64,000 nt of DNA, from contig LCEC01000001.1 in assembly GCA_000997475.1 (NCBI GenBank), forward strand, positions 375 to 64,374, in the 5' to 3' direction. Every line of letters begins with the position of its first letter. Within the stretch, counting starts at the first letter, position 1. The position numbers and the translations under genes are program-made. Below the pieces are notes generated by a model that saw nothing but the letters and a program-made list of their open reading frames with translations, did no database searches and was not told where the DNA came from. Source of the DNA: Parcubacteria group bacterium GW2011_GWB1_42_6. GTDB taxonomy: Bacteria; Patescibacteriota; Minisyncoccia; Portnoybacterales; GWB1-42-6. Of this stretch, positions 20,123 to 54,148 are shown in pieces.

Positions 20123-21907
20123 ATGAAAAGATTAAATCGGAAAAGAAGCAGACTTTGGGTTTTTGGCTTGGCAAGCCTTGTTTTGTGTTTTATTTTTTTA
20201 GGATCGGCTTTGGCTGGCTCGGCGCAGGCGTTTTTTCCCGGAGAAACAAAAGGTTTTAACATTAACTCGGAATATGATTATTTCGGAAGAAATTCAATCA
20301 GCGCGACTTTAAGGCAAGCGGGCGACAAAGCTCTTTTTTACGTGGATGATGAATTGTGGAACAGCGGAGGCAATGATCAAATAAATTCCGCCGTTTTGAA
20401 ATTATTGAGCGAATTTGACGAAATCATTTATCCCCGCGTGACCAAGGTTTTTGGCGCGGAATGGAATCCGGGCATAGACAACGAGGGAAGAATCACCATT
20501 CTTCTTTTTAAAATGAAAGACATCGCCGGCGGTTATTTTAACACAATCGATGAATTTCCAAAAAGCGTTTTTCCTTTGTCAAATGAAAGAGAGATGGTTT
20601 ATCTCAATTCCAATTTCTTGGGCACGGCCAGAATAAACAATTTTCTGGCCCATGAATTTCAGCACCTGATAAATTATTATCAAAAAGAAAAACTTCGCGG
20701 AGTCGTGGAGGATATTTGGCTCAATGAAGCAAGATCGGAATATGCGCCGACTCTTTGCGGCTACGACGAGGCGTTGGCGGGGAGCAATTTGGAAAAAAGA
20801 TCGCGCGAATTTATCCAGAATTCTTCCGATTCTTTAACCGAATGGCGGGAAAAAATCGGCGACTACGGATCGGTTAACCTTTTTATGCAATATCTGATGA
20901 GCCGCTACGGGGAGGTTTTTTTGAAGGAAACCATGAGGTCGGAAAAAACCGGCATTGCCAGCATCAATGACGCCCTGGAAAAGCTTGGGTTCAAAGAAAA
21001 ATTCGAAGATGTTTTTATGAACTGGCTTGTCGCCAATTACGCCAATGACTGCCTGCTGGGAGAACAAAAGATTTTTTGCTATCTTAATTCCAATCTGGCC
21101 GATTTTAAAATTATTCCCAACCTCACGACTTTTCTTCTTCCGGTCAAAAACAAAATTTTTTCTTTTTCCGACAATACCAAGGATTGGTCGGGGCGCTGGT
21201 ACAGGATTTCAGGCGGCGGCGAAAATTTGGATTTAAAGCTGGAATTTAAAAGTCAAACGGGCGAAAATTTCAAGGCGGCGGTTTTGGTTTTGAAATCGGA
21301 CGGAAAAAAAGAAATTCAGTTTTTTTCAACCGATCCGGAAGGAAAATTTTGGAAAATTTTTAAGGGTTTTGGCAGTGAAATTGATTCGATCGTTCTTATC
21401 CCTTTCAGCTACGGAAAAAAAGAAAATTTTACCGCCAATGAATCTTTGAAAAATTTTTCTTATTCCATGGAACTTGGAGAAACCGGTTCTTTGGCCGTTG
21501 CCCCCGTTTTAACGCCTTCTCCGGCCGTTTCTTCCGTTTCCCAAAAAATTCCTTCATATCCGGACGGCTCATTGATTCGGGCCGAGGAAGATTACAAGGT
21601 TTACGTGATCAAAGGAAACTTCAAAAGATGGATCCAGTCTCCCCAAATATTGCTTTCGTATTCGCATTGGGATTGGAACAAGATTATCAAAGTTTCAACG
21701 GCTGATCGTGATTGGTATAAAGACGCCGGCTTGATTCGGGCGGAAAATGATTATAAAGTCTATGAAGCGAACGGAGATATGAGCAAACACTGGCTCAATA
21801 TCAGCACCCGGCAATTCACGGATTCCGGAAGAGATTGGAATATGATATTTGCGGTGAATAAGGCGGAACTGGATCTTTATAAAACGGGAGCGGATGTGAT
21901 GAGATAA
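20123..21907 (+). CDS. Secreted protein with HExxH zinc-metallopeptidase-like motif and C-terminal tandem repeats
   Basis: Signal peptide MKRLNRKRSRLWVFGLASLVLCFIFLGSALA; LAHEFQHLINY; C-terminal duplicated ~45-aa segments (LIRAEEDYKVYVIKGNFKRW / LIRAENDYKVYEANGDMSKHW). Confidence 0.45.
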   Translation: MKRLNRKRSRLWVFGLASLVLCFIFLGSALAGSAQAFFPGETKGFNINSEYDYFGRNSISATLRQAGDKALFYVDDELWNSGGNDQINSAVLKLLSEFDEIIYPRVTKVFGAEWNPGIDNEGRITILLFKMKDIAGGYFNTIDEFPKSVFPLSNEREMVYLNSNFLGTARINNFLAHEFQHLINYYQKEKLRGVVEDIWLNEARSEYAPTLCGYDEALAGSNLEKRSREFIQNSSDSLTEWREKIGDYGSVNLFMQYLMSRYGEVFLKETMRSEKTGIASINDALEKLGFKEKFEDVFMNWLVANYANDCLLGEQKIFCYLNSNLADFKIIPNLTTFLLPVKNKIFSFSDNTKDWSGRWYRISGGGENLDLKLEFKSQTGENFKAAVLVLKSDGKKEIQFFSTDPEGKFWKIFKGFGSEIDSIVLIPFSYGKKENFTANESLKNFSYSMELGETGSLAVAPVLTPSPAVSSVSQKIPSYPDGSLIRAEEDYKVYVIKGNFKRWIQSPQILLSYSHWDWNKIIKVSTADRDWYKDAGLIRAENDYKVYEANGDMSKHWLNISTRQFTDSGRDWNMIFAVNKAELDLYKTGADVMR

Positions 21908-22039
21908 TTTTCAAATTGCAAATTCTCCTCCTTCGCTCCTTCGGAGCTTCGGAAGGACATGGCAATTTCCAATTAAGGATGAAACTATTTATATAACTCC
22001 CCCAACCCCCTCTTATCTAAGAGGGGGAATCCGCCAAGA

Positions 22040-22135
22040 GAGTTTTATTCAGAAATTAGGCATTAAGAATTTTATCGTTTTATTGGAAATTATAATTTGT
22101 AATTTGGAAATTAAGAAAAATTTATCAATAAAGCA
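22040..22135. repeat. GGAAATT/AATTAGGCATT repeat block upstream of murB (related block at 23090-23235)
   Basis: aattaggcatt and tttgtaatttggaaatt are shared with the downstream block. Confidence 0.5.
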
Positions 22136-22150
22136 AATTAATTCATACAG

Positions 22151-23089
22151 ATGTTTTCCGTTGATGATATTCAACAAAACGTTCCCCTCTCTTCCTTCGC
22201 CACCTTCCGCATCGGCGGAGCGGCTAAGTATTTTTTGGTTGTCAAAACAAGAGAAGAATTGATTAAAGCGGTAAAATGGGCGCGTGAAAACGATTTGTCG
22301 TATTTTGTTTTGGGAGGCGGCAGCAATATTTTAATTTCGGAAAAAGGTTTCAGTGGTCTTGTTATAAAAAACGAATCGAACGGTTTAAAAATTGGCGAAA
22401 TGGAAGACGGAAAACTAAAAGTGAAGTGCGATTCGGGAGTTATGACGGCCAAAATAGTTTTTGAGACAACAAAGCTTGGTTACTCCGGAGCCGAATGGGG
22501 ATTCGGAATTCCCGGCACGATCGGCGGGGCGATTTGCGGCAATGCCGGCCGTTTGGGCCGGGAAACATCGCAAATCGTGGAAAGCGTCACAATGCTCGGC
22601 GGCGACTTATCGGAGAAAGAAATCGCCAAAAGCGAATGCGGATTTGAATATCGCTCAAGCCGATTCAAAAAAAATCAAGAAATTGTTTTAGGGGCGGAGC
22701 TGGAGTTTGTCAAAAAATCGAAAGAAGAAATTAATTCGGTTCTCAATGAGGCCAAAGAAATCGTCCGGCAAGGCGCTCCTTTTCCTTCGGCCGGCTGCGC
22801 GTTTAAAAACTATGTTGTGAGGCAAAATGACCCGCTTTTGCTGAATCACCCGGATTTAAATGAAAAAGTCAGGGGCGGAAAAATCGGCGTGGGATTTTTG
22901 ATTGATCAGAGCGGGCTTAAAGGCCGTAAAATAGGCGGAGCGCGAATTTGGGAAGGGCACGCCAATTATATTGTGAACGCGGGCGGCGCAAAATCGGGCG
23001 ATGTTTTGGAACTGATAAAATTGGCCAAAGAAAAAGTTAAAGAAAAATTCGGAATTGAACTTGAAGAAGAAATCAGGGTAATAAAATAA
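22151..23089 (+). CDS. murB: UDP-N-acetylenolpyruvoylglucosamine reductase MurB
   Basis: FAD-binding N-terminus (FATFRIGGAAKYF..LGGGSNIL) and MurB C-terminal domain. Confidence 0.8.
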   Translation: MFSVDDIQQNVPLSSFATFRIGGAAKYFLVVKTREELIKAVKWARENDLSYFVLGGGSNILISEKGFSGLVIKNESNGLKIGEMEDGKLKVKCDSGVMTAKIVFETTKLGYSGAEWGFGIPGTIGGAICGNAGRLGRETSQIVESVTMLGGDLSEKEIAKSECGFEYRSSRFKKNQEIVLGAELEFVKKSKEEINSVLNEAKEIVRQGAPFPSAGCAFKNYVVRQNDPLLLNHPDLNEKVRGGKIGVGFLIDQSGLKGRKIGGARIWEGHANYIVNAGGAKSGDVLELIKLAKEKVKEKFGIELEEEIRVIK

Positions 23090-23284
23090 TTTCCAAATTA
23101 CAATTTCCAATTTCCAAACGATTCCGAATTTTGAGCTTAAGATCAGAATTCGGAAATATTGGAAATTTAAGAATTAGGCATTTCATTAGAAATTGGGATT
23201 TGTAATTTGGAAATTTTCTATTGCATTCTTTTCCAAAAAGCTTATTATGAAAATATAAGCTTTTTTAATTGTTAAAAAATTTTA

Positions 23285-23313
23285 TTTACATTTGAAAAAA
23301 TAAAATATATAAT
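23285..23313 (+). promoter_or_regulatory. Sigma70-like promoter upstream of hpf
   Basis: TTTACA, 17-nt spacer, TATAAT; lies 30 nt upstream of the hpf ATG. Confidence 0.5.
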
Positions 23314-23343
23314 TAAAAAAGATTTTTTAAACTATAAAAAATC

Positions 23344-23760
23344 ATGAAAATAAATTTCAAAGCGAAGGATTTGGAATTGAACGAAGAGATAAAAAATCTC
23401 GTTGAAAAAAAGCTGGAGACTTTGCGAAGATTTTTTCAAGCGAGCGATCCGGAAGCCGTGCTTGCCGAAGTTGAACTTTCGCGGACCACTCTTCATCATC
23501 AAAACGCTCAAGATCTTTTTCGGGCGGAAATAAATCTAACCATCGCCGGAAAAATGTTTCGGGCGGAATCGGAGCAATCCGATCTCCGCACGGCGCTTGA
23601 AGAAACCCGCGATGATTTGGAAAGAGAGATAAATAAATTTAAAACCAAAAGGGAGACTGTTTTTATTCGAGGCGCGCGCAGCATAAAAAAGGCTTTGAGC
23701 CTTTCGCCCTTAGCGCGTTTCAATAGAAAGTCGCAAAATAAAGAAGATGGTACCGAATAA
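23344..23760 (+). CDS. hpf: Ribosome hibernation promoting factor (HPF/RaiA/YfiA family)
   Basis: [31 protein letters not shown].. matches the HPF N-terminal domain. Confidence 0.75.
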
Positions 23761-24304
23761 AGTGTTTTTCACCAAAGGAGTCGGCGTTCATAAGGAATAC
23801 TTGATGTCTTTTGAGTTGGCGCTCCGCGACGCGGGAATCGCTCCGTTTAATTTGGTGACGGTTTCAAGCATTTACCCTCCGGGTTGCAAAAGAATCAGCC
23901 GCGAAGAAGGATTAAAAATCATAAAACCCGGGCAAATTCTTTTTGTCGTGATGAGCCGCAATGCCACCAATGAACCAAACAGACTTATGGCTTCATCCGT
24001 TGGTTGCGCCATTCCGGCGGATGCCGATCAATATGGTTATCTTTCCGAGCATCATTCTTTTGGAGAAAATGATCAGAAAGCCGGAGATTACGCCGAGGAT
24101 TTGGCGGCTTCAATGCTAGCTTCAATCCTTGGCATCGAATTTAATTCGGATTCAGCTTGGGACGAAAGGGAACAGCTTTACAAAATGGGCGGCAAAATCG
24201 TCAAAACCACCAATGTCACGCAGTCGGCTTTGGGCAATAAAGACGGATTTTGGACAACGGTTTTGGCGGCGGCGGTTTTAGTGATGCCCGAAGACGAAAA
24301 GTGA
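23747..24304 (+). CDS. pdaD: Pyruvoyl-dependent arginine decarboxylase (PdaD, archaeal type)
   Basis: [24 protein letters not shown] with the Ser-Ser self-cleavage site characteristic of PdaD; 185 aa. Confidence 0.75.
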
Positions 24305-24309
24305 GTGTC

Positions 24310-24392
24310 ACCCTACGGAATTACGGATTGGTACGGATATTACGGATTTGATTTATCTGTATAATCCGTATATATCTGTAATTCAGTAGGGT
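24310..24392. repeat. TACGGAT direct/inverted heptamer array (copy 1)
   Basis: ccctacggaattacggattggtacggatattacggatt..taatccgtatat..gtagggtt. Confidence 0.6.
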
Positions 24393-24452
24393 TATGAAAC
24401 CTCGCCATAATTAACAAGAGTTAATTAACTCAAGAAAACCCGGCGGAGGGCC

Positions 24453-25694
24453 GTGATTTTCTTTTGGTTTATGAAGCATTTAACTAAAAGATTGGTTGGG
24501 CCCCGCGTTCTCAACGAACCGATTACCGGCTCGGAAACAACGGCGGAGCTGTTTGAAAAGGCGTTTGGCGCTTATGTCGGGCGCGAAGTAAAAACCGCCT
24601 ACAATATAATCAAGCGTATGGTTGAAAAAGATCACACGGTTGTTTTGGCGATTTCAGGAGCGATGACGCCGGCTGATTTTGTCGTGCCCTGCGTGATTCC
24701 CTTGATTAAATCGGGAATCGTGGATGTCATAACCACTACCGGCGCCAATATCTATCATGATGTGCAGCGTCTTGAAAGCGACGATTGGTTTCAGGTCAAT
24801 CCTAATGAAGGCGATTTGAAATTGCGCAAAGCGGGTTGGACGAGAATTTATGACACCGCTTTTCCCGAAGACGATCTTTGGGCGACGGATAATCTGATTA
24901 TTGATCTTGTCCGCCGGTCGGATTTCGCCCATCAGATGACAACCACGCAATTTCATTATCTTTTAGGCGAGCATCTTTCCAAGCACGGACGGAGAAGATT
25001 CGCCACGGCCGATTTAAACCGCAGCTTGCTGGTTCAAGCTTATCGGCATAAAATTCCGATATTTTGCGGCGCGCCACAAGACGGTTCAATATTTTTGAAT
25101 TTGGCTTTTCTCAAAAGAAAGCTTGGCCCCAAATACAAATTCGGCATTGATATGGAACTTGATATCCATGAATTCGGCGCTTTCCACTATTTCGCCAAAA
25201 ATAAGAGATCAAAAAAATTATCGGTGATAATTTTGGGCGGCGGAGTGCCTAAAAATTATTCTTTGCAGCCCGAGCCGTATTTGACGCAAATTTGCGGAAT
25301 TGACGCGGGTGGCTACGATATGGATGTTCAAATCTCCGACGCTCACGTTCAAAACGGCGGGCTTTCTTCCTGCACGGCCTCCGAAGCTCACACTTGGGGA
25401 AAGACTTCGGAGGCGTGTTTAAAAAATTCCCAATATGTTTTTGCCGATGTCACTTCCACTTTTCCTTTTATCGTTCACGCTTTGATGCAGGAAGAATTGG
25501 AGAAGGAACCTCGCAGACTGATGGAGCATCGCGATGAAGCGATTGAACTTTTGGACAAGGTTCTCAAAAGAAAAACCTTAAGGGAATACTATCTCAAAGG
25601 AAAAGTTAAAAAAGGCGAACTGCATCCGGAAGCTCATTTTGGATCAAACCACGCCGGCCATGTTGAAAAAACGGCCGACAATCCGGAGGCGTAA
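24453..25694 (+). CDS. Deoxyhypusine synthase-like protein (DHS family; possible homospermidine synthase)
   Basis: ..VVLAISGAMTPADF..IVDVITTTGANIYHD.. resembles the DHS NAD-binding core; probable start MKHLTKRL at 24471. Confidence 0.65.
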   Translation: MIFFWFMKHLTKRLVGPRVLNEPITGSETTAELFEKAFGAYVGREVKTAYNIIKRMVEKDHTVVLAISGAMTPADFVVPCVIPLIKSGIVDVITTTGANIYHDVQRLESDDWFQVNPNEGDLKLRKAGWTRIYDTAFPEDDLWATDNLIIDLVRRSDFAHQMTTTQFHYLLGEHLSKHGRRRFATADLNRSLLVQAYRHKIPIFCGAPQDGSIFLNLAFLKRKLGPKYKFGIDMELDIHEFGAFHYFAKNKRSKKLSVIILGGGVPKNYSLQPEPYLTQICGIDAGGYDMDVQISDAHVQNGGLSSCTASEAHTWGKTSEACLKNSQYVFADVTSTFPFIVHALMQEELEKEPRRLMEHRDEAIELLDKVLKRKTLREYYLKGKVKKGELHPEAHFGSNHAGHVEKTADNPEA

Positions 25695-25695
25695 A

Positions 25696-25818
25696 TTATC
25701 GCGGATCTGACGCGGATCTTTGGACTGTGCCGCGGATAAACGCGGATTTTCAACCGCTCGGCGCCGTTGACGGATTTCTATTCGTAATTGGTTTTAAATT
25801 CGTAATTAGTGAGGATTC
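25696..25818. promoter_or_regulatory. CGCGGAT x4 array followed by a tandem ATTCGTAATTRG module upstream of the agmatinase gene
   Basis: cgcggatctgacgcggatc..ccgcggataaacgcggatttt .. attcgtaattggttttaaattcgtaattagtGAGGAttcATG. Confidence 0.5.
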
Positions 25819-26763
25819 ATGAATTTTCTCGACATCAATCAATCTTACAAAAACGCGAAATTCGTTGTCGCGCCTTTTGGCTTTGAAGCCACCACGAGTT
25901 ATGGCGGAGGAACGAATAAAGGCCCGGCGGCAATAATCAAAGCCAGCGCCCAGGTTGAGCTTTTCGACGAAGAACTCTGGCGGGAAATCTACAAAAAGAC
26001 AGGCATTTTCACTTTGCCCGCAATAAAACCCGCCAAAAATATTCCCGGCGCCAAGAAACAGATTTCAAAAATAATCTCAAAAATTCTTGCGGATAAAAAA
26101 ATCCCGATTGTTTTGGGCGGCGAACATAGCATCACGCCTATGATAGTTGAAACATTTTCGGATTTCCTCCTCCCCTCGTCGAGGGGAGGCCATGGAGGGG
26201 TAATTAATCCTAAAATTACCTCCCCCGAACCCCTCCCTAAAAAGGAGGGAAGGAATTCCGCCGCTTCTTTCTCCATCCTCCAATTTGACGCCCACGCCGA
26301 TTTGCGCGATGGCTACTTGGGGCAAAAATATTCCCACGCGGCCGCCATGCGCCGATGTTTGGATAATGAGGGTGTTAATTTAGTCCAAGTCGGGATCAGG
26401 AACATCAGCAACGAAAATGATGAGTTGGTTTTTTGGGAAGCAAACAAAGATCGCATTAAAACTTTCTGGGCCAAAGATAAAAAAAATTGGAAGCTTTCCG
26501 AAATTATGGGTTCTCTTAGGGAAAATGTTTATTTAACCTTTGATGTTGACGCTTTTGATTCTTCGATTATGCCTTCAACCGGCACGCCCGAACCCGGAGG
26601 ATTGGATTGGTACGAAGTGATGGATATTTTGCGCGAAGTCGCCAAAACCAAAAACATCATCGGCATGGATTTTGTGGAGCTCGCTCCCATTAAAACCCTT
26701 CCCGCGCCGGATTTTTTGGTCGCCAAGATGATTTATAAGACGATAGGGTATATTTTAAAATAA
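25819..26763 (+). CDS. Agmatinase/arginase-family ureohydrolase
   Basis: Metal-binding motifs GGEHSIT, FDAHADL, SFDVDAFD; carries an in-frame palindromic insertion at 26166-26252. Confidence 0.75.
   Translation: MNFLDINQSYKNAKFVVAPFGFEATTSYGGGTNKGPAAIIKASAQVELFDEELWREIYKKTGIFTLPAIKPAKNIPGAKKQISKIISKILADKKIPIVLGGEHSITPMIVETFSDFLLPSSRGGHGGVINPKITSPEPLPKKEGRNSAASFSILQFDAHADLRDGYLGQKYSHAAAMRRCLDNEGVNLVQVGIRNISNENDELVFWEANKDRIKTFWAKDKKNWKLSEIMGSLRENVYLTFDVDAFDSSIMPSTGTPEPGGLDWYEVMDILREVAKTKNIIGMDFVELAPIKTLPAPDFLVAKMIYKTIGYILK
26166..26252. repeat. In-frame composite of three GC-rich hairpins inside the agmatinase gene
   Basis: cctcccctc-gtc-gaggggagg, ggaggggtaatt..aattacctcccc, ccctccc-taaaaa-ggaggg; the region encodes SSRGGHGGVINPKITSPEPLPKKEGRN. 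Confidence 0.6.
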
Positions 26764-26777
26764 TTCATCGGATAGTA

Positions 26778-26806
26778 AAGAGACCTTAAAACGGTCTTTT
26801 TTTATT
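26778..26806 (+). terminator. Putative rho-independent terminator after agmatinase
   Basis: Short hairpin agacc/ggtct followed by a T7 run. Confidence 0.45.
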
Positions 26807-26925
26807 TCAGATCCTTAATATTGACAAAACATGTATAATATGATAAAATGTAATAATAAGGGATATCAAACCAAAGGCAAAAGGATAGTTCTTATTCATA
26901 TCAAAAACCAGTAAGGGAGGTTATT

Positions 26926-27708
26926 ATGAAGCCGTTTTGGTTCAATTTGACGCGCAAGGTGTTGAAGTGGGCAATGGGAACGGATCGGATTGAAGTCTCT
27001 CTCAGGCCGGCTGAAAAATTCCAAGGTTCTGTAAAAATTCTCGGCATATCGGGAAGTCCGCGCGGCAGAAAGAGCCGGAGCTATAAAATGATGGCGAAGG
27101 TTCTGGAACATGCCCGGGTATTCGGCGCCCAAACGCAGGAGATCATTCTCTGTGAAAAGACGATGAAACCTTGTGAGGGGTGTCTCTCTGATCCGGACAA
27201 GGAATGCACATTTCCGTGTATTCATTGCGAGGACGATACGAACGAAATTCTCCAAATGATGATCGATGCGGACGCATTTGTTTTTGCCACACCGATTCAC
27301 TGGGCGGCGCCTTCGGCCATCATGAAAATCCTCATTGATAAGATGATCTCCCTCGAGGAGAATCATTATGAGATCGCAATGAGTGATGGTCGCGAGCCAC
27401 TGCTTGGCAAACCATGCGCCTTGATCGCTTCGCAAGAAGGAGACGGCGCAACCGGCGCGCTCGGTTGGATGGCGGCGGAACTACGGGAAATGGGAGTTTG
27501 GACTATTCCCTGGGGCCAGACTTTCAAACCCGCCCTTCTGGAAAAGAAAATCGTGAAGCTCGGAATGTTTGCCCTGGGGGAACGCAAGTTCGAGTGGATC
27601 GAAAATAACCTGGCGGCGGCGGGAAGAAACCTTGCTTTGGTCACCAGACTCCTTAAAGAAAGCGGTTATAAGTGGGACGATTACGATGTAATCGAACCCA
27701 ATTGTTAA
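26926..27708 (+). CDS. Flavodoxin-like NADPH-dependent FMN reductase / iron-sulfur flavoprotein-like
   Basis: KILGISGSPRG..(FMN_red-like) with a CEGC..C..C cysteine cluster; strong SD AAGGGAGG upstream; GC-richer than its surroundings. Confidence 0.55.
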   Translation: MKPFWFNLTRKVLKWAMGTDRIEVSLRPAEKFQGSVKILGISGSPRGRKSRSYKMMAKVLEHARVFGAQTQEIILCEKTMKPCEGCLSDPDKECTFPCIHCEDDTNEILQMMIDADAFVFATPIHWAAPSAIMKILIDKMISLEENHYEIAMSDGREPLLGKPCALIASQEGDGATGALGWMAAELREMGVWTIPWGQTFKPALLEKKIVKLGMFALGERKFEWIENNLAAAGRNLALVTRLLKESGYKWDDYDVIEPNC

Positions 27709-27711
27709 AGA

Positions 27712-27745
27712 ATAAAAGGCTGTGAAATTCACAGCCTTTTTAAAT
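27712..27745 (+). terminator. Rho-independent terminator
   Basis: Hairpin aaggctgtg/cacagcctt followed by a T-run. Confidence 0.6.
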
Positions 27746-27824
27746 TGCGCAAAAATGGATTGTTGATGTATAATATAAATGTCGCTCTATTTATAAAGCG
27801 AAAATAAACTTTAAATAAAAAAAT

Positions 27825-28760
27825 ATGATGAATCCAGAATCAAATTTAGGCATTCCCGAGAATGTCCAAGCCGGGCAGAATTTAGAAAAACGCGAGGAAG
27901 AAAATGAATACAATCCCCTGGAGATATTAAGAGAAAGAGAATTTTATCCCGGAGTAATCGAGGTTGAGGAAGGCAAGGAAATCATTACAGACGAGGATTA
28001 TAAAGCTTGCTTTGAATTTTTGAGGGAAAATATCAAAGACGGCAGTCTTTTGAACTTGAATTTTGGATCCGGCATCACTCATTGCCATTATATGCTTCCG
28101 CTGATTGACAGACTTTCTCATGTCACGGCTTTGGATATCAGCGCCAAAAACAATCAACTTATCGGAGAACTGCTCAATTCTATCCAAGACAAAGGAAATC
28201 CTGAAATAATCGAAGAGGAAGACAAGAAGATGTTGAGGGATCTGGCTCAAGCCGTTTCCAAAGATGAAGATTTTGGAATAAAAGAGAGTGGCGAAGAACT
28301 GCTGGCCATGCTTCACGAAAAAAGCCAGCACGAAGGAAAATCCGACATTATTACCGCCGATATGATTGAAGATATGGAGAAACTGGGTTCAGGAGAGCTG
28401 GTTGGCGATAGAAAATTTGATAATATATATCTTTCGTTTTCTATTTACGCTCGAACCAGAGAAGAACTGGTTGGATTCTTGAAGAACGCGAAAGAAAGAT
28501 TAAACGAAGGCGGAAATCTTTTGATAATAGATTGCGAAAATTATACTAATGAGAGCGGGGAAGAGAAAGAGCTCTTCTCGGAGGATAAGGTCATAGAAGA
28601 AAAATATGGCGAAGTTTTTGATTGGACTTTGGATGAAATGAAAGAGATTCTAAATGAAGTTGGATTCAGCAGCGTTAATTCGCAAATTCGCGAGATAGAA
28701 GCCAAAGAAGATGAAGCGGAAGAATTTGGAACCTATCTTTTCATCAAAGCGCAAAAATAA
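27825..28760 (+). CDS. Hypothetical acidic protein (possible methyltransferase-like fold)
   Basis: 311-aa ORF, very Glu/Asp-rich, with an LNLNFGSGITH segment. Confidence 0.35.
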   Translation: MMNPESNLGIPENVQAGQNLEKREEENEYNPLEILREREFYPGVIEVEEGKEIITDEDYKACFEFLRENIKDGSLLNLNFGSGITHCHYMLPLIDRLSHVTALDISAKNNQLIGELLNSIQDKGNPEIIEEEDKKMLRDLAQAVSKDEDFGIKESGEELLAMLHEKSQHEGKSDIITADMIEDMEKLGSGELVGDRKFDNIYLSFSIYARTREELVGFLKNAKERLNEGGNLLIIDCENYTNESGEEKELFSEDKVIEEKYGEVFDWTLDEMKEILNEVGFSSVNSQIREIEAKEDEAEEFGTYLFIKAQK

Positions 28761-33728: not shown

Positions 33729-33770
33729 TATAAGTGAGTTATTTACGCTATAGCGTAAATAACTCACTTA
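33729..33770. repeat. Perfect 18-bp-stem palindrome
   Basis: taagtgagttatttacgc tatagc gtaaataactcactta. Confidence 0.8.
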
Positions 33771-33849
33771 TGGAAATTTGAAGGGGACATTCAGAAATAA
33801 TTAAAATAATTAAAAAGGACGGAATTTTTCCGTCCTTTTGCGTTTTTAA

Positions 33850-43085: not shown

Positions 43086-43652
43086 TTATTTATTAGCTCT
43101 TTCCGTGTATTCTCCGGTTTGCGTGTTGATCCGGATAACATCTCCTTCTTCAATAAACAGCGGAGCGTTAATCATGGCGCCGGTTTCGATTTTCACGGCT
43201 TTGTTGCCGCCTTGGGCGGTGTTGCCTTTGATAGAAGGAGGAGCTTCGATCACTTTAAATTCCATTTTGATCGGCAAATCGATATTGATAATCTTGCTTT
43301 CAAACATCACGACTTCCACGGAGGAATCGGGTTTGAGGAATCTTTTTTGTTCGCCGATGCTTTCTTCGGGCAATTCAAATCGGACGGACGGATTTTCCAT
43401 TTCGCAAAAAACGAATTTGTCGCGATGGTTGTATAGAAATTTGACTTTTTTGTAATCGATTTCGGCTTCCTTAAAATTGTCGGAATTTTGGAAATTGCGG
43501 TTGAGTACTTTGCCGGTGATGAGATTTTTTATTTTGGTCTGGGCGACCGGCTTGCGCTGCTGCATTCTTAAAAAATCAAATTCCAGCACCTCATAGGGCT
43601 GGCCGTCCAAAATAAAAAGAGTTCCGGGTTTGAGTTCGTTGTAGCTGATCAT
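43086..43652 (-). CDS. efp: Elongation factor P
   Basis: MISYNELKPGTLFILDGQPYEVLEFDF.. three-domain EF-P; the ORF-track N-terminal extension is not credible. Confidence 0.85.
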   Translation of the reverse strand: MISYNELKPGTLFILDGQPYEVLEFDFLRMQQRKPVAQTKIKNLITGKVLNRNFQNSDNFKEAEIDYKKVKFLYNHRDKFVFCEMENPSVRFELPEESIGEQKRFLKPDSSVEVVMFESKIINIDLPIKMEFKVIEAPPSIKGNTAQGGNKAVKIETGAMINAPLFIEEGDVIRINTQTGEYTERANK

Positions 43653-43728
43653 GAGTTTGCGCTCCCCCTCTTCCTTGCGCGCTTCATATTTATAGCATAG
43701 AATGAGGTAAATTACAAACCCCCGCACC

Positions 43729-43868
43729 TAATCGGCATAATTGAATTCTCTTTCTTCTCTGTCATCCCCGCGCAGGCGGGGATCCAGATTAATTCAGAAC
43801 CTGGATTCCCCCCGTAGCTGCGGGGCGGGAATGACAAATATAAAGCCAATGCCGATTAGGTGCGGGGG
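43729..43868. mobile_element. MITE-like element A with 19-bp perfect terminal inverted repeats
   Basis: TIR CCCCCGCACCTAATCGGCA / TGCCGATTAGGTGCGGGGG; internal multi-hairpin core. Confidence 0.6.
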
Positions 43869-51851: not shown

Positions 51852-51960
51852 TTTTCAACCAACCGTGCTAAGCAATCCTTCTTCTTCGATGAAGAGGTTC
51901 CGCGGAAGCAAAGCGGAGCTGACGGTGCGTTTAGCGCGTTTTGTATTGGTTTTTTTCCTC

Positions 51961-52065
51961 ACTAATTACGAATAAATTTACTCCAATTACGAATAATTAT
52001 AGATTAATTGCGAGATGATGCGCTTCATTCGTAATTAGTTCTTAATTCGTAATTGGCGAGGATTC
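51961..52065. promoter_or_regulatory. TTCGTAATT palindromic module upstream of rpmJ
   Basis: Two copies of YYAATTACGAAT, a spacer, two copies of ATTCGTAATTRG, then GAGGATTC ATG. Confidence 0.5.
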
Positions 52066-52179
52066 ATGAAAGTTCGCGCTTCGGTTAAAAAAATATGCCA
52101 GAAATGCAAACTCGTGCGCCGAAAAGGCAAATTGCGGGTTATTTGCGCGATCAAAAAACATAATCAAAGACAAGGATGA
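52066..52179 (+). CDS. rpmJ: 50S ribosomal protein L36
   Basis: [37 protein letters not shown]; TGA stop. Confidence 0.8.
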
Positions 52180-53311: not shown

Positions 53312-53312
53312 A

Positions 53313-53392
53313 ACCCTACGGAATTACGGATTAGTACGGATATTACGGATTCAAATTGGATTTATCCGTATATTCGTAAAAATCCGTAAATC
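53313..53392. repeat. TACGGAT direct/inverted heptamer array (copy 2)
   Basis: ccctacggaattacggattagtacggatattacggatt.. first 38 nt almost identical to 24310-24347. Confidence 0.6.
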
Positions 53393-53406
53393 TATAGAAA
53401 ACCACA

Positions 53407-54049: not shown

Positions 54050-54148
54050 ACCAATTACGAATAAATCCAATCCAATTACGAATTAAAGCCGGCTACGAAT
54101 AGTTTTATATTCGTAATTGGTTCCAATTCGTAATTAGCGAGGAAAAAT
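54050..54148. promoter_or_regulatory. TTCGTAATT palindromic module upstream of rpoA
   Basis: ccaattacgaat x2 ... attcgtaattgg ttccaattcgtaattagcGAGGAaaaatATG. Confidence 0.5.

Follow-up and report, generated by a model that had tools for sequence, protein, structure and literature searches.

The window analyzed here is a 64,000-nt stretch of a contig from Parcubacteria group bacterium GW2011_GWB1_42_6, an uncultivated member of the CPR (Patescibacteria). Between positions 23344 and 26763 it carries four genes arranged head to tail on the plus strand: hpf (encoding the ribosome hibernation-promoting factor), pdaD (encoding a pyruvoyl-dependent arginine decarboxylase, PvlArgDC), a gene of the deoxyhypusine synthase (DHS) family, and a homologue of speB encoding an arginase-fold ureohydrolase. 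A first-pass annotation of this DNA had described a polyamine operon at the locus, and a check of the open reading frames bears out its gene identities and coordinates; all four reading frames are present on the plus strand with family scores far above chance.

The hpf gene (23344..23760) encodes 138 amino acids and matches PF02482 with 60.5 bits and TIGR00741 with 59.5 (cut-off 40.9). Most related loci of CPR bacteria likewise have hpf 5' of the polyamine genes. The start of pdaD (23747..24304, 185 amino acids) overlaps hpf, its ATG lying 14 nt within the end of that gene. The overlap is not kept in relatives, where the two genes are separated by 13 to about 200 nt. PdaD is predicted to form agmatine, and it passes the curated models NF009064 (214.4, cut-off 207) and TIGR00286 (121.4, cut-off 106.95) in addition to matching PF01862 with 207.3 bits. 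The VSSIYPP self-cleavage site noticed earlier is present. In an alignment to the structure of the M. jannaschii S53A protein (1n2m), V-S40-S41-I of the window protein corresponds to I-S52-(S53A)-I, which pairs Ser40-Ser41 with Ser52-Ser53 of the Methanocaldococcus enzyme. The first-pass annotation had regarded PdaD as a mainly archaeal enzyme. At this locus it is no archaeal oddity, as CPR clusters of this kind have PvlArgDC as their usual partner.

The third gene belongs to a SpeY-like subfamily that we call DS1, and its product matches PF01916 with 194 bits. The coding region ends at 25694 on the plus strand and has two possible starts, a GTG at 24453 with GGAGG 3 nt upstream and an ATG at 24471 that corresponds to the N-terminus common to homologues. 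The speB homologue that follows (25819..26763, plus strand, 314 amino acids) matches PF00491 with 190 bits and exceeds the cut-off of TIGR01230 (187.7, cut-off 174.3). Its metal-binding motifs GGEHS, DAHAD and FDVDAFD are invariant (H103, D157-A-H159-A-D161, and D242-V-D244). HMM matches to the protein break at a lineage-specific, in-frame insertion of 30 amino acids (residues 116–145, positions 26164..26253, plus strand), the DNA of which forms three hairpins (fold z = -3.65). The insertion is missing in most homologues, shorter in P0391 (about 10 amino acids) and P0392 (about 20 amino acids), and identical in the fragment P0393.

The last three genes are not tightly packed, with about 150–165 nt between pdaD and the DHS-family gene and 124 nt between the latter and speB. 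The first of these spacers contains an 83-nt hairpin (24310..24392, plus strand; -44.8 kcal/mol, z = -8.2) with no T-run on its 3' side. This hairpin is a copy of a repeated intergenic element; a second copy at 53312-53400 is 84% identical and likewise lies between co-directional open reading frames. It is missing in relatives, whose spacers are 35–160 nt long. A 25-nt box, AATTCGTAATTAGTGAGGATTCATG (25797..25821, plus strand), ends in the speB start codon and holds the likely ribosome-binding site. A near-identical copy at 52044-52068 also ends in ATG, giving two matches where none is expected by chance.

Upstream, between murB and hpf, there is a long near-perfect hairpin (23088..23215, plus strand) formed by an inverted repeat with 30-nt arms that are 90% complementary (RNA fold -48.6 kcal/mol, z = -9.3). 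This hairpin is a possible palindromic repeat element. Between this hairpin and hpf, 30 nt 5' of the hpf start, lies a sigma-70-like promoter candidate, TTTACA-17-TATAAT (23285..23313, plus strand), proposed solely from its match to 11 of 12 consensus positions. At the other end an intrinsic-terminator-like hairpin (26777..26808, plus strand), consisting of a 9-bp stem followed by TTTTTTTATTT, would close the operon, and the next promoter-like site (26821-26849) is found 5' of an FMN-reductase gene. With promoter-like and terminator-like sites bracketing the four genes, hpf-pdaD-DS1-speB probably forms a single transcription unit, a judgment that we make jointly with that of an agmatine-dependent homospermidine pathway for the last three genes.

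DS1 has the DHS fold (Foldseek TM-score 0.75 to the DHS of both P. horikoshii and human). However, it scores below the cut-offs of all DHS equivalog models (NF002006, 189.5 vs 434; TIGR00321, 149 vs 304; others lower). It likewise falls short of the curated thresholds of the two SpeY-type NCBIfam models (NF001980, 276.4 vs 450; NF002699, 141.3 vs 500), and for this reason we consider it a separate subfamily. As reference points, NF002699 gives 564 and 592 for the Sphingomonas and Trichormus proteins, and NF001980 gives 458.5 for the second paralogue in a related locus (L002). DS1 shows 26–31% identity to the other two SpeY-type subfamilies: 29–31% to the NF001980 type (DS2; PRK00770, 'homospermidine biosynthesis protein'), which is the DHS homologue that CPR bacteria commonly have and is absent from the 64-kb window, and 26–28% to the NF002699 type, which is that of the characterised Thermus CdmS. 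Identity to archaeal and eukaryotic DHS is 22–25%. DS1 additionally contains 9 extra residues ahead of the GGGVPKNY motif and, at the C-terminus, is extended by about 60 residues compared with haloarchaeal DHS.

The catalytic lysine, which the first-pass annotation had singled out for checking, is kept, in a segment (EAHTWGK) that aligns to K329 of human DHS. Numbered from the ATG at 24471, E305, W309 and K311 are the equivalents of Glu323, Trp327 and Lys329, and the equivalent of Asp238 is also kept. The human sequence in the alignment is presumably the correct one, its numbering being consistent at K329, H288, D243, D316, E323 and W327. DS1 further shares the fold and the NAD-binding GGG motif with archaeal and eukaryotic DHS. 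In contrast, D243 and D316 are both replaced by Leu (L209 and L298), H288-H289 by Asn-Tyr, N292 by Gln, and S105-N106 by Gly-Ala. These active-site substitutions are common to DS1 and to the NF001980 and NF002699 types. The DHS fold and the catalytic lysine are features that DS1 has in common with the NF002699 type, as are the glutamate to which modelling assigns guanidino binding, the hydrophobic replacements of D243 and D316, and the Asn in place of H288. The reported counterparts of D243 and D316 in CdmS are Phe204 and Leu286 (PMC10981699); the first of these positions is Leu in DS1.

In a neighbor-joining tree of 27 sequences with thin archaeal sampling, DS1 and the NF001980 type are sister clades (99% bootstrap), and the clade of these two with the NF002699 type is separate from haloarchaeal and human DHS (100% bootstrap). 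The characterised SpeYs are represented in this comparison only by the alphaproteobacterial/cyanobacterial/Thermus type, placed by proxy. The phylogeny that the first-pass annotation had called for, against bacterial homospermidine synthases and archaeal DHS, thus places the protein with bacterial SpeY-like proteins and not with archaeal or human DHS. DS1 is a divergent branch of the SpeY-like family; the pathway itself is already known, and the operon is most likely an ordinary case of it.

About 30 CPR loci have DS1 flanked by pdaD and speB, with speB directly adjoining it in most of them, and the three genes are also neighbors in Micrarchaeia (L012). In several loci, L111 among them, an alanine-racemase-fold PLP decarboxylase occupies the pdaD position. 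Conservation therefore concerns a decarboxylase function of the arginine/ornithine type and not the PdaD protein as such. The same slot between pdaD and speB is filled by the NF001980-type paralogue in sister CPR lineages, including the Nealsonbacteria-type clusters, which suggests that this paralogue and DS1 do the same job. However, both occur together in one cluster in three CPR loci (L002, L084 and L108), so their functions could differ. In WOR-3, Bipolaricaulota and Myxococcota, which lie outside CPR and Micrarchaeota, neither an arginine decarboxylase gene nor speB clusters with DS1. The myxococcotal gene is accompanied by an Rrf2 regulator, and the gene in Planctomycetota by a lysine-2,3-aminomutase-like radical SAM gene and a methyltransferase. 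We count these contexts, the co-occurrence in the three loci, the low model scores and the low identity against a plain SpeY assignment.

These same observations, together with the high conservation of the DS1 clade, could indicate that DS1 makes another guanidino- or polyamine product from agmatine, or that it pairs as a subunit with the NF001980-type paralogue to build a hetero-oligomer like that of trypanosomatid DHS; a heterotetramer of DHS paralogues has been solved (6dft). This is improbable, as in most CPR clusters, including the one described here, DS1 is alone with the decarboxylase gene and speB and must therefore work without the paralogue. Its catalytic residues are all intact, which speaks against a dead regulatory subunit, and occupation of the paralogue's slot in sister lineages is the usual pattern of same-function replacement. 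Improbable, too, is the broader proposal that DS1 is no plain SpeY but forms a fourth branch of the DHS superfamily with a function of its own, with a product other than N1,N9-bis(guanidino)homospermidine (G44G) or a different acceptor, that has been shared horizontally among CPR, DPANN archaea (Micrarchaeota), Bipolaricaulota, WOR-3, Myxococcota and Planctomycetota and here replaced an ancestral NF001980-type enzyme for new chemistry.

The closest functional precedents come from recent work on SpeY. G44G is the product formed from agmatine by CdmS of T. thermophilus and by each of seven other SpeY homologues, which come from diverse phyla, and SpeB homologues convert G44G to homospermidine, with the two SpeY-associated SpeBs that were tested being inactive on agmatine (PMC13625781, PMC10981699). 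A cluster of pylADC, SpeY and SpeB genes in Caldilinea aerophila has been validated by experiment (Li et al. 2026, PMC13625781). By its published description that cluster brings together the same three families as the window, namely an archaeal-type pyruvoyl arginine decarboxylase, a DHS homologue and an arginase-fold ureohydrolase, and the chemistry predicted for the window is that shown in Caldilinea, in which two agmatines yield G44G and then homospermidine (PMC13625781). The window cluster differs from it in having hpf in the same operon, the 30-residue SpeB insertion and the long hairpins in the spacers.

The analysis establishes which families the genes belong to, their catalytic motifs, the conservation of their order and the place of DS1 in the SpeY-like group; what DS1 and SpeB act on and what they form we infer by analogy with the tested SpeY enzymes. 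The operon most likely directs synthesis of homospermidine from arginine by the agmatine-coupling ("diagmatine") route. PdaD would cleave itself at Ser40/Ser41 to generate its pyruvoyl cofactor and then convert arginine to agmatine. DS1, the predicted agmatine-coupling (diagmatine/G44G) synthase, would use NAD+ and Lys311 (counted from the ATG at 24471) to oxidise one agmatine, hold its 4-guanidinobutyl moiety as an enzyme imine, and move this moiety onto the amino group of a second agmatine, producing G44G (also diagmatine or caldomycin). The SpeB homologue, predicted to be a diagmatine ureohydrolase, would then remove both guanidino groups as two molecules of urea, leaving sym-homospermidine. 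Putrescine would not be an obligatory intermediate, as a SpeB-like ureohydrolase turns G44G directly into homospermidine. Of the route drawn in the first-pass annotation, from arginine through agmatine and putrescine to homospermidine, the end product is probably right; however, the passage through putrescine is probably wrong, as all bacterial DHS homologues assayed to date join two agmatines to G44G and DS1 shows the SpeY-type changes in its active site. Two points weigh against the G44G route: the 30-residue insertion in SpeB, and the specificity of this protein for G44G or agmatine, which is not readable from sequence.

In the classical alternative, SpeB would be a true agmatinase that forms putrescine from the agmatine made by PdaD, and the DHS-family enzyme would join two putrescines, or putrescine and another aminobutyl donor. 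SpeB does score above the agmatinase model TIGR01230 and its best solved relatives are agmatinases, while the substrate of the DS1 subfamily is deduced from other SpeYs, and eukaryotic DHS can form homospermidine from putrescine plus spermidine (PMC13625781). However, CdmS used neither putrescine nor spermidine (PMC10981699), all eight tested SpeYs depend on agmatine, SpeY-linked SpeBs do not act on it, and a canonical agmatinase would drain the substrate of SpeY (PMC13625781). Additionally, DS1 lacks D243 and D316, which bind the spermidine amines in human DHS, and has the hydrophobic residues typical of SpeY in their place, and there is no spermidine pathway gene in the cluster. We therefore consider the classical route unlikely. 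Among the reading frames scanned at 20123-28760 there is none that resembles the putrescine-dependent bacterial homospermidine synthase (HSS), an enzyme not homologous to DHS.

The first-pass annotation had further suggested a deoxyhypusine-like transfer and thought it notable that a DHS-like enzyme occurs in a genome with EF-P. The efp gene is located where it had been placed (43086..43652), on the minus strand and outside the operon. Archaeal and eukaryotic DHS act on a lysine of IF5A, a protein not expected in bacteria, whereas the organism studied here has an EF-P with a Gln tip (loop FLRMQQRKP). In an alignment to solved EF-P structures, Gln32, not Lys or Arg, is found at the tip of the modified loop, and a Gln tip is shared by 37 of the 129 nearest EF-P cluster representatives. 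The tip residue is Lys or Arg in every EF-P modification system that we are aware of. A deoxyhypusine-like transfer to EF-P is thus unsupported because the tip residue is Gln. The occurrence of a DHS homologue in an organism with EF-P has reportedly been known since the 2004 paper of Brochier and colleagues; it is not notable in itself and is accounted for by SpeY.

It is very improbable, more generally, that DS1 transfers a deoxyhypusine-like group from agmatine or a polyamine to EF-P or another translation factor, with SpeB then trimming the guanidino group. The DHS fold with its intact catalytic lysine and the co-transcription with a ribosome factor gene fit such a role, EF-P modification by bacterial DHS-like proteins has been the subject of speculation (PMC6544042), and an agmatine-based aIF5A pathway, in which SpeB would trim the guanidino group, has been put forward for haloarchaea (PMC5178350). 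However, Gln32 offers no epsilon-amino acceptor group, and in many close relatives the neighboring Lys34 is replaced by Arg (QQRRP). The efp gene is 16 kb distant, is carried by the opposite strand, and has no linked modification gene in its vicinity. In addition, DS1 is far below all DHS equivalog cut-offs, and its active site is of the small-molecule SpeY type and does not carry the DHS signature.

CPR bacteria have tiny genomes and very few biosynthetic pathways. The recurrence in these genomes of a three-enzyme polyamine module tied to a ribosome hibernation factor suggests that homospermidine matters to them, and co-transcription with hpf would be consistent with a role of the polyamine at the ribosome or in translation. 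On the agmatine-coupling reading, the newly described route extends to CPR and DPANN lineages, and the labels 'deoxyhypusine synthase' and 'agmatinase' given to such genes are probably misleading as to function. The curated SpeY-type models miss the DS1 subfamily, to which the existing expression assay could be applied at low cost and with a clearly delimited target.

Four co-directional ORFs on the forward strand give unambiguous profile matches. These are hpf (23344-23760; TIGR00741, 59.5 against a cut-off of 40.9), pdaD (23747-24304; PvlArgDC, 207 bits; NF009064, 214.4 against a cut-off of 207), a gene of the deoxyhypusine synthase (DHS) family that we call DS1 (24453 or 24471 to 25694; DS (PF01916), 194 bits) and the arginase-fold gene speB (25819-26763; Arginase, 190 bits; TIGR01230 'agmatinase', 187.7 against a cut-off of 174.3). 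The matches bear out the cluster of hpf, pdaD, DHS-like and agmatinase genes proposed in the first-pass annotation. Its self-cleavage site in PdaD is also recovered, with V-S40-S41-I aligning at the position of the Ser52/Ser53 site in the M. jannaschii enzyme. The locus is of a known pathway type and had been observed correctly at the gene level. The pdaD ATG lies 14 nt within hpf, a TTTACA-17-TATAAT site is found upstream of hpf, and speB is followed by a stem with a T-run, with the next promoter-like site ahead of the downstream FMN-reductase gene. The simplest reading of the sequence is that the four genes would form one transcription unit. An acid-resistance system like that of Chlamydia AaxB was dismissed, as the cluster is without an arginine/agmatine antiporter.

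The spacers of this locus are longer than those of its relatives. The pdaD-DS1 spacer contains an 83-nt hairpin (24310-24392; -44.8 kcal/mol, z = -8.2), of which a second copy, 84% identical, is located at 53312-53400; each lies just past a stop codon, between co-directional ORFs. This element of approximately 85-90 nt carries TACGGAT-type repeats, is not found in the related loci, and could represent a small palindrome that is mobile or that stabilises RNA. A near-perfect 128-nt hairpin lies between murB and the hpf promoter (23088-23215; 30-nt arms 90% complementary; -48.6 kcal/mol, z = -9.3). In addition, a near-identical 25-nt box, AATTCGTAATTRGYGAGGATTCATG, occurs at 25797-25821 and 52044-52068, where no match is expected by chance. 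Both boxes end in ATG, which in the first is the speB start codon. There are also ATTCGTAATT-type inverted repeats at 51956-52067 and 54074-54135, and a perfect 42-nt palindrome at 33730-33771. No RNA element is proposed for the DS1-speB spacer, as it folds no better than shuffled sequence (z = -0.7). Rfam matches in the operon at a permissive threshold were set aside, comprising only sub-threshold models of plant and animal miRNA precursors that merely mark long hairpins, and neither an Rfam scan at gathering threshold nor a tRNA scan returned anything in the whole window.

The speB gene carries a 30-aa in-frame insertion (26164-26253), the DNA of which forms three hairpins. It is not an assembly artefact, because the two closest homologues have it in shorter form (approximately 10 aa in P0391 and 20 aa in P0392) and a fragment, P0393, carries the insertion in identical form. 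Every metal-binding motif is intact in the protein. The insertion recalls palindromic elements known to invade protein-coding genes.

Bacterial DHS homologues known as SpeY and CdmS provide a precedent for this combination of genes. In Anabaena, SpeY is required for homospermidine synthesis, and CdmS of Thermus thermophilus joins two agmatines to form N1,N9-bis(guanidino)homospermidine (G44G; other names are caldomycin and diagmatine); a ureohydrolase of the SpeB type then turns G44G into homospermidine (PMC10981699). Li et al. (2026) found the same agmatine coupling for seven further SpeYs from diverse phyla, one of them from a Caldilinea aerophila cluster that consists of a pyruvoyl arginine decarboxylase (ADC), SpeY and SpeB, the same three families as in the window (PMC13625781). 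The SpeBs linked to SpeY in Caldilinea and Winogradskyella are active on G44G and not on agmatine (PMC13625781), and therefore this route skips putrescine. Clusters with SpeY had already been noted in DPANN archaea and other candidate phyla, and the SpeYs reported there include those of Gimesia, Woesearchaeota, Diapherotrites and marine group II (PMC10407285). By analogy with these tested relatives, from which the substrates and products are taken, it is probable that PdaD would convert arginine to agmatine, that DS1 would join two agmatines to G44G via NAD-dependent oxidation and an imine with the enzyme's Lys311, and that SpeB would release homospermidine and two urea from G44G. The sequence analysis itself establishes gene identity, catalytic motifs, the placement in the clade and the conservation of gene order. 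The route through putrescine put forward in the first-pass annotation, in which the speB product would act as an agmatinase, is improbable given the substrate preference of the SpeY-linked SpeBs.

DS1 retains the catalytic lysine, the loss of which would have counted against the first-pass annotation: K311, numbered from the ATG, lies in the motif EAHTWGK and aligns to human K329. The numbering of the human DHS sequence in this alignment agrees with all published key residues. The equivalents of Trp327, Glu323 and Asp238 are also kept. Compared with both human and haloarchaeal DHS, DS1, its NF001980-type paralogue DS2 and the proteins of the SpeY/CdmS-type model NF002699 share replacements of S105-N106 by Gly-Ala/Ser, A132-G133 by Gly-Ala, H288-H289 by Asn-Tyr/Phe, N292 by Gln, and D243 by Leu, Met or Phe. 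In all three, D316 is replaced by Leu (or Cys); since Leu is found at this position in haloarchaeal DHS too, the change distinguishes them only from human DHS. In CdmS the Glu323 equivalent is modelled to bind the guanidino group, and the two differences stressed for that enzyme are exactly the replacements at D243 and D316 (PMC10981699). An AlphaFold model of DS1 (pLDDT 69, pTM 0.75, active-site loops below 50) matches solved DHS structures with a TM-score of 0.75 and serves to confirm the fold only, not active-site geometry. The PDB holds no SpeY structure.

The first-pass annotation also raised a deoxyhypusine-like transfer to EF-P. The efp gene is at 43086-43652, the position given there, but on the minus strand. 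In alignment with solved EF-P structures, the tip of its loop (FLRMQQRKP) is Gln32, in place of the Lys of E. coli and Firmicutes or the Arg of Thermus, and the residue two positions before it is not Pro. In the 129 nearest 50%-cluster representatives the tip is Q in 37 (mostly QQRKP or QQRRP), R in 60 and K in 21. The Q tip is a family trait that marks a populated subfamily; Volkwein et al. reported it in only 0.6% of EF-Ps (PMC6544042). None of the known modification systems could act on this EF-P. Volkwein et al. speculated that EF-Ps whose tip is K or N might be modified by DHS-like proteins (PMC6544042). Gln offers no acceptor for an aminobutyl group, and many relatives have Arg in place of the nearby Lys34, so transfer to EF-P is unsupported. 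Protein modification by DS1 is extremely unlikely. The efp-mnmA spacer contains a perfect 20-nt inverted repeat (43719-43738 / 43849-43868) with arms 110 nt apart.

Bacterial DHS homologues comprise at least three subfamilies, namely NF002699, NF001980 (DS2) and DS1. Of the characterised SpeYs, the Thermus/alphaproteobacterial/cyanobacterial type alone is placed among these, by proxy in NF002699. NF002699 takes in a Sphingomonas protein and cyanobacterial proteins (564-592 bits, cut-off 500). An ODC-like gene directly precedes the Sphingomonas gene, an arrangement shared with the characterised Rhizorhabdus wittichii, and the published CdmS residue numbers F204, L286, E293 and K299 are consistent with the residue spacing of this type. 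NF001980 ('homospermidine biosynthesis protein') takes in the DS2 of some CPR clusters (458.5 bits, cut-off 450). The window DS1 reaches 276 with NF001980 and 141 with NF002699, also falls short of every DHS equivalog cut-off, and is 29–31% identical to DS2, 26–28% to NF002699 proteins and 22–25% to true DHS. In a neighbour-joining tree DS1 pairs with DS2 (99% bootstrap), and the two group with NF002699 apart from haloarchaeal and human DHS (100%).

Among the matches listed, DS1 is 75–82% identical to proteins from metagenome genomes of Parcubacteria, Portnoybacteria and other Patescibacteria, and its clade includes CPR members (74–82% identity), WOR-3 (73%), Bipolaricaulota/Acetothermia/Fraserbacteria (57–65%), Micrarchaeota (52–56%) and Myxococcota/Planctomycetota (44–49%). 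A search with DS2 matched CPR metagenome proteins. No match to DS1 was found in phage genomes by tblastn, and a plasmid collection yielded only distant DHS-family genes (25–30% identical), which were used as reference sequences. In Trichormus and Nostoc plasmids, an NF002699-type speY adjoins iron-transport genes and rocD (ornithine aminotransferase) rather than ADC or speB genes.

From the genome scan we took the best 80 DS1-type loci. At least approximately 30 CPR loci, of genomic and metagenomic origin, have DS1 between an ADC gene and speB. The window and its CPR relatives share a gene order that runs from the genes for a 594-aa protein and MurB to the FMN-reductase gene; together with the identity of the DS1 proteins, this indicates that the window comes from an uncultivated CPR bacterium. 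In a Micrarchaeia locus (L012) the three genes adjoin in a different orientation. In three loci, L111 (4602-5975), L103 and L089 (4560-5838), the pdaD slot is filled by a 457-aa alanine-racemase-fold PLP decarboxylase (Orn_Arg_deC_N), a non-orthologous replacement showing that the conserved need is a decarboxylase supplying the next enzyme. The L089 gene is split into two ORFs that overlap, suggestive of a frameshift or a pseudogene. Planctomycetota (L050:4677-6092(-), L072, L074) have a DS1-type gene flanked divergently by a radical SAM/lysine-2,3-aminomutase-like gene, with a methyltransferase gene on the other side and, in L074, a speB-like gene too; in these genomes DS1 may have another role. 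Among the matches listed, Myxococcota (L027:5090-5581 and approximately 30 others) conserve an Rrf2-family regulator upstream of the DS1-type gene, with no ADC or speB gene within 6 kb. Myxococcus makes homospermidine lipids (PMC9548883).

Nealsonbacteria and other CPR lineages (L119-L123) have the module murB-(hpf)-pdaD-DS2-speB-ECF S-component-TM1506, and thus DS1 holds the slot of DS2. Three CPR loci have the order pdaD-DS1-speB-DS2, with DS2 directly 3' of speB and 30% identical to DS1 (L002:4644-5765, L084:10016-11140, L108:4460-5572). These look like intermediates of an in-place replacement of DS2 by DS1. In most CPR clusters of either type, speB is followed by genes for an ECF-transporter S component and a TM1506/DUF1893 protein (among many others, L084:11184-12243 and L001:8039-8945); the pair is missing from the window. 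A 436-aa protein, P0472, is a fusion of Arginase and TM1506, which hints at a functional link of TM1506 to the pathway. A distinct activity of DS1, or a DS1/DS2 hetero-oligomer such as the three loci with both genes could encode, is quite unlikely; DS1 is the only DHS-family gene throughout the 64-kb window. The sharing of one slot across CPR loci argues, short of proof, for a single function of DS1 and DS2, agmatine coupling in our reading. DS1 is a divergent subfamily outside the curated models, with, as far as could be determined, no assayed member, and it is common to CPR bacteria and DPANN archaea.
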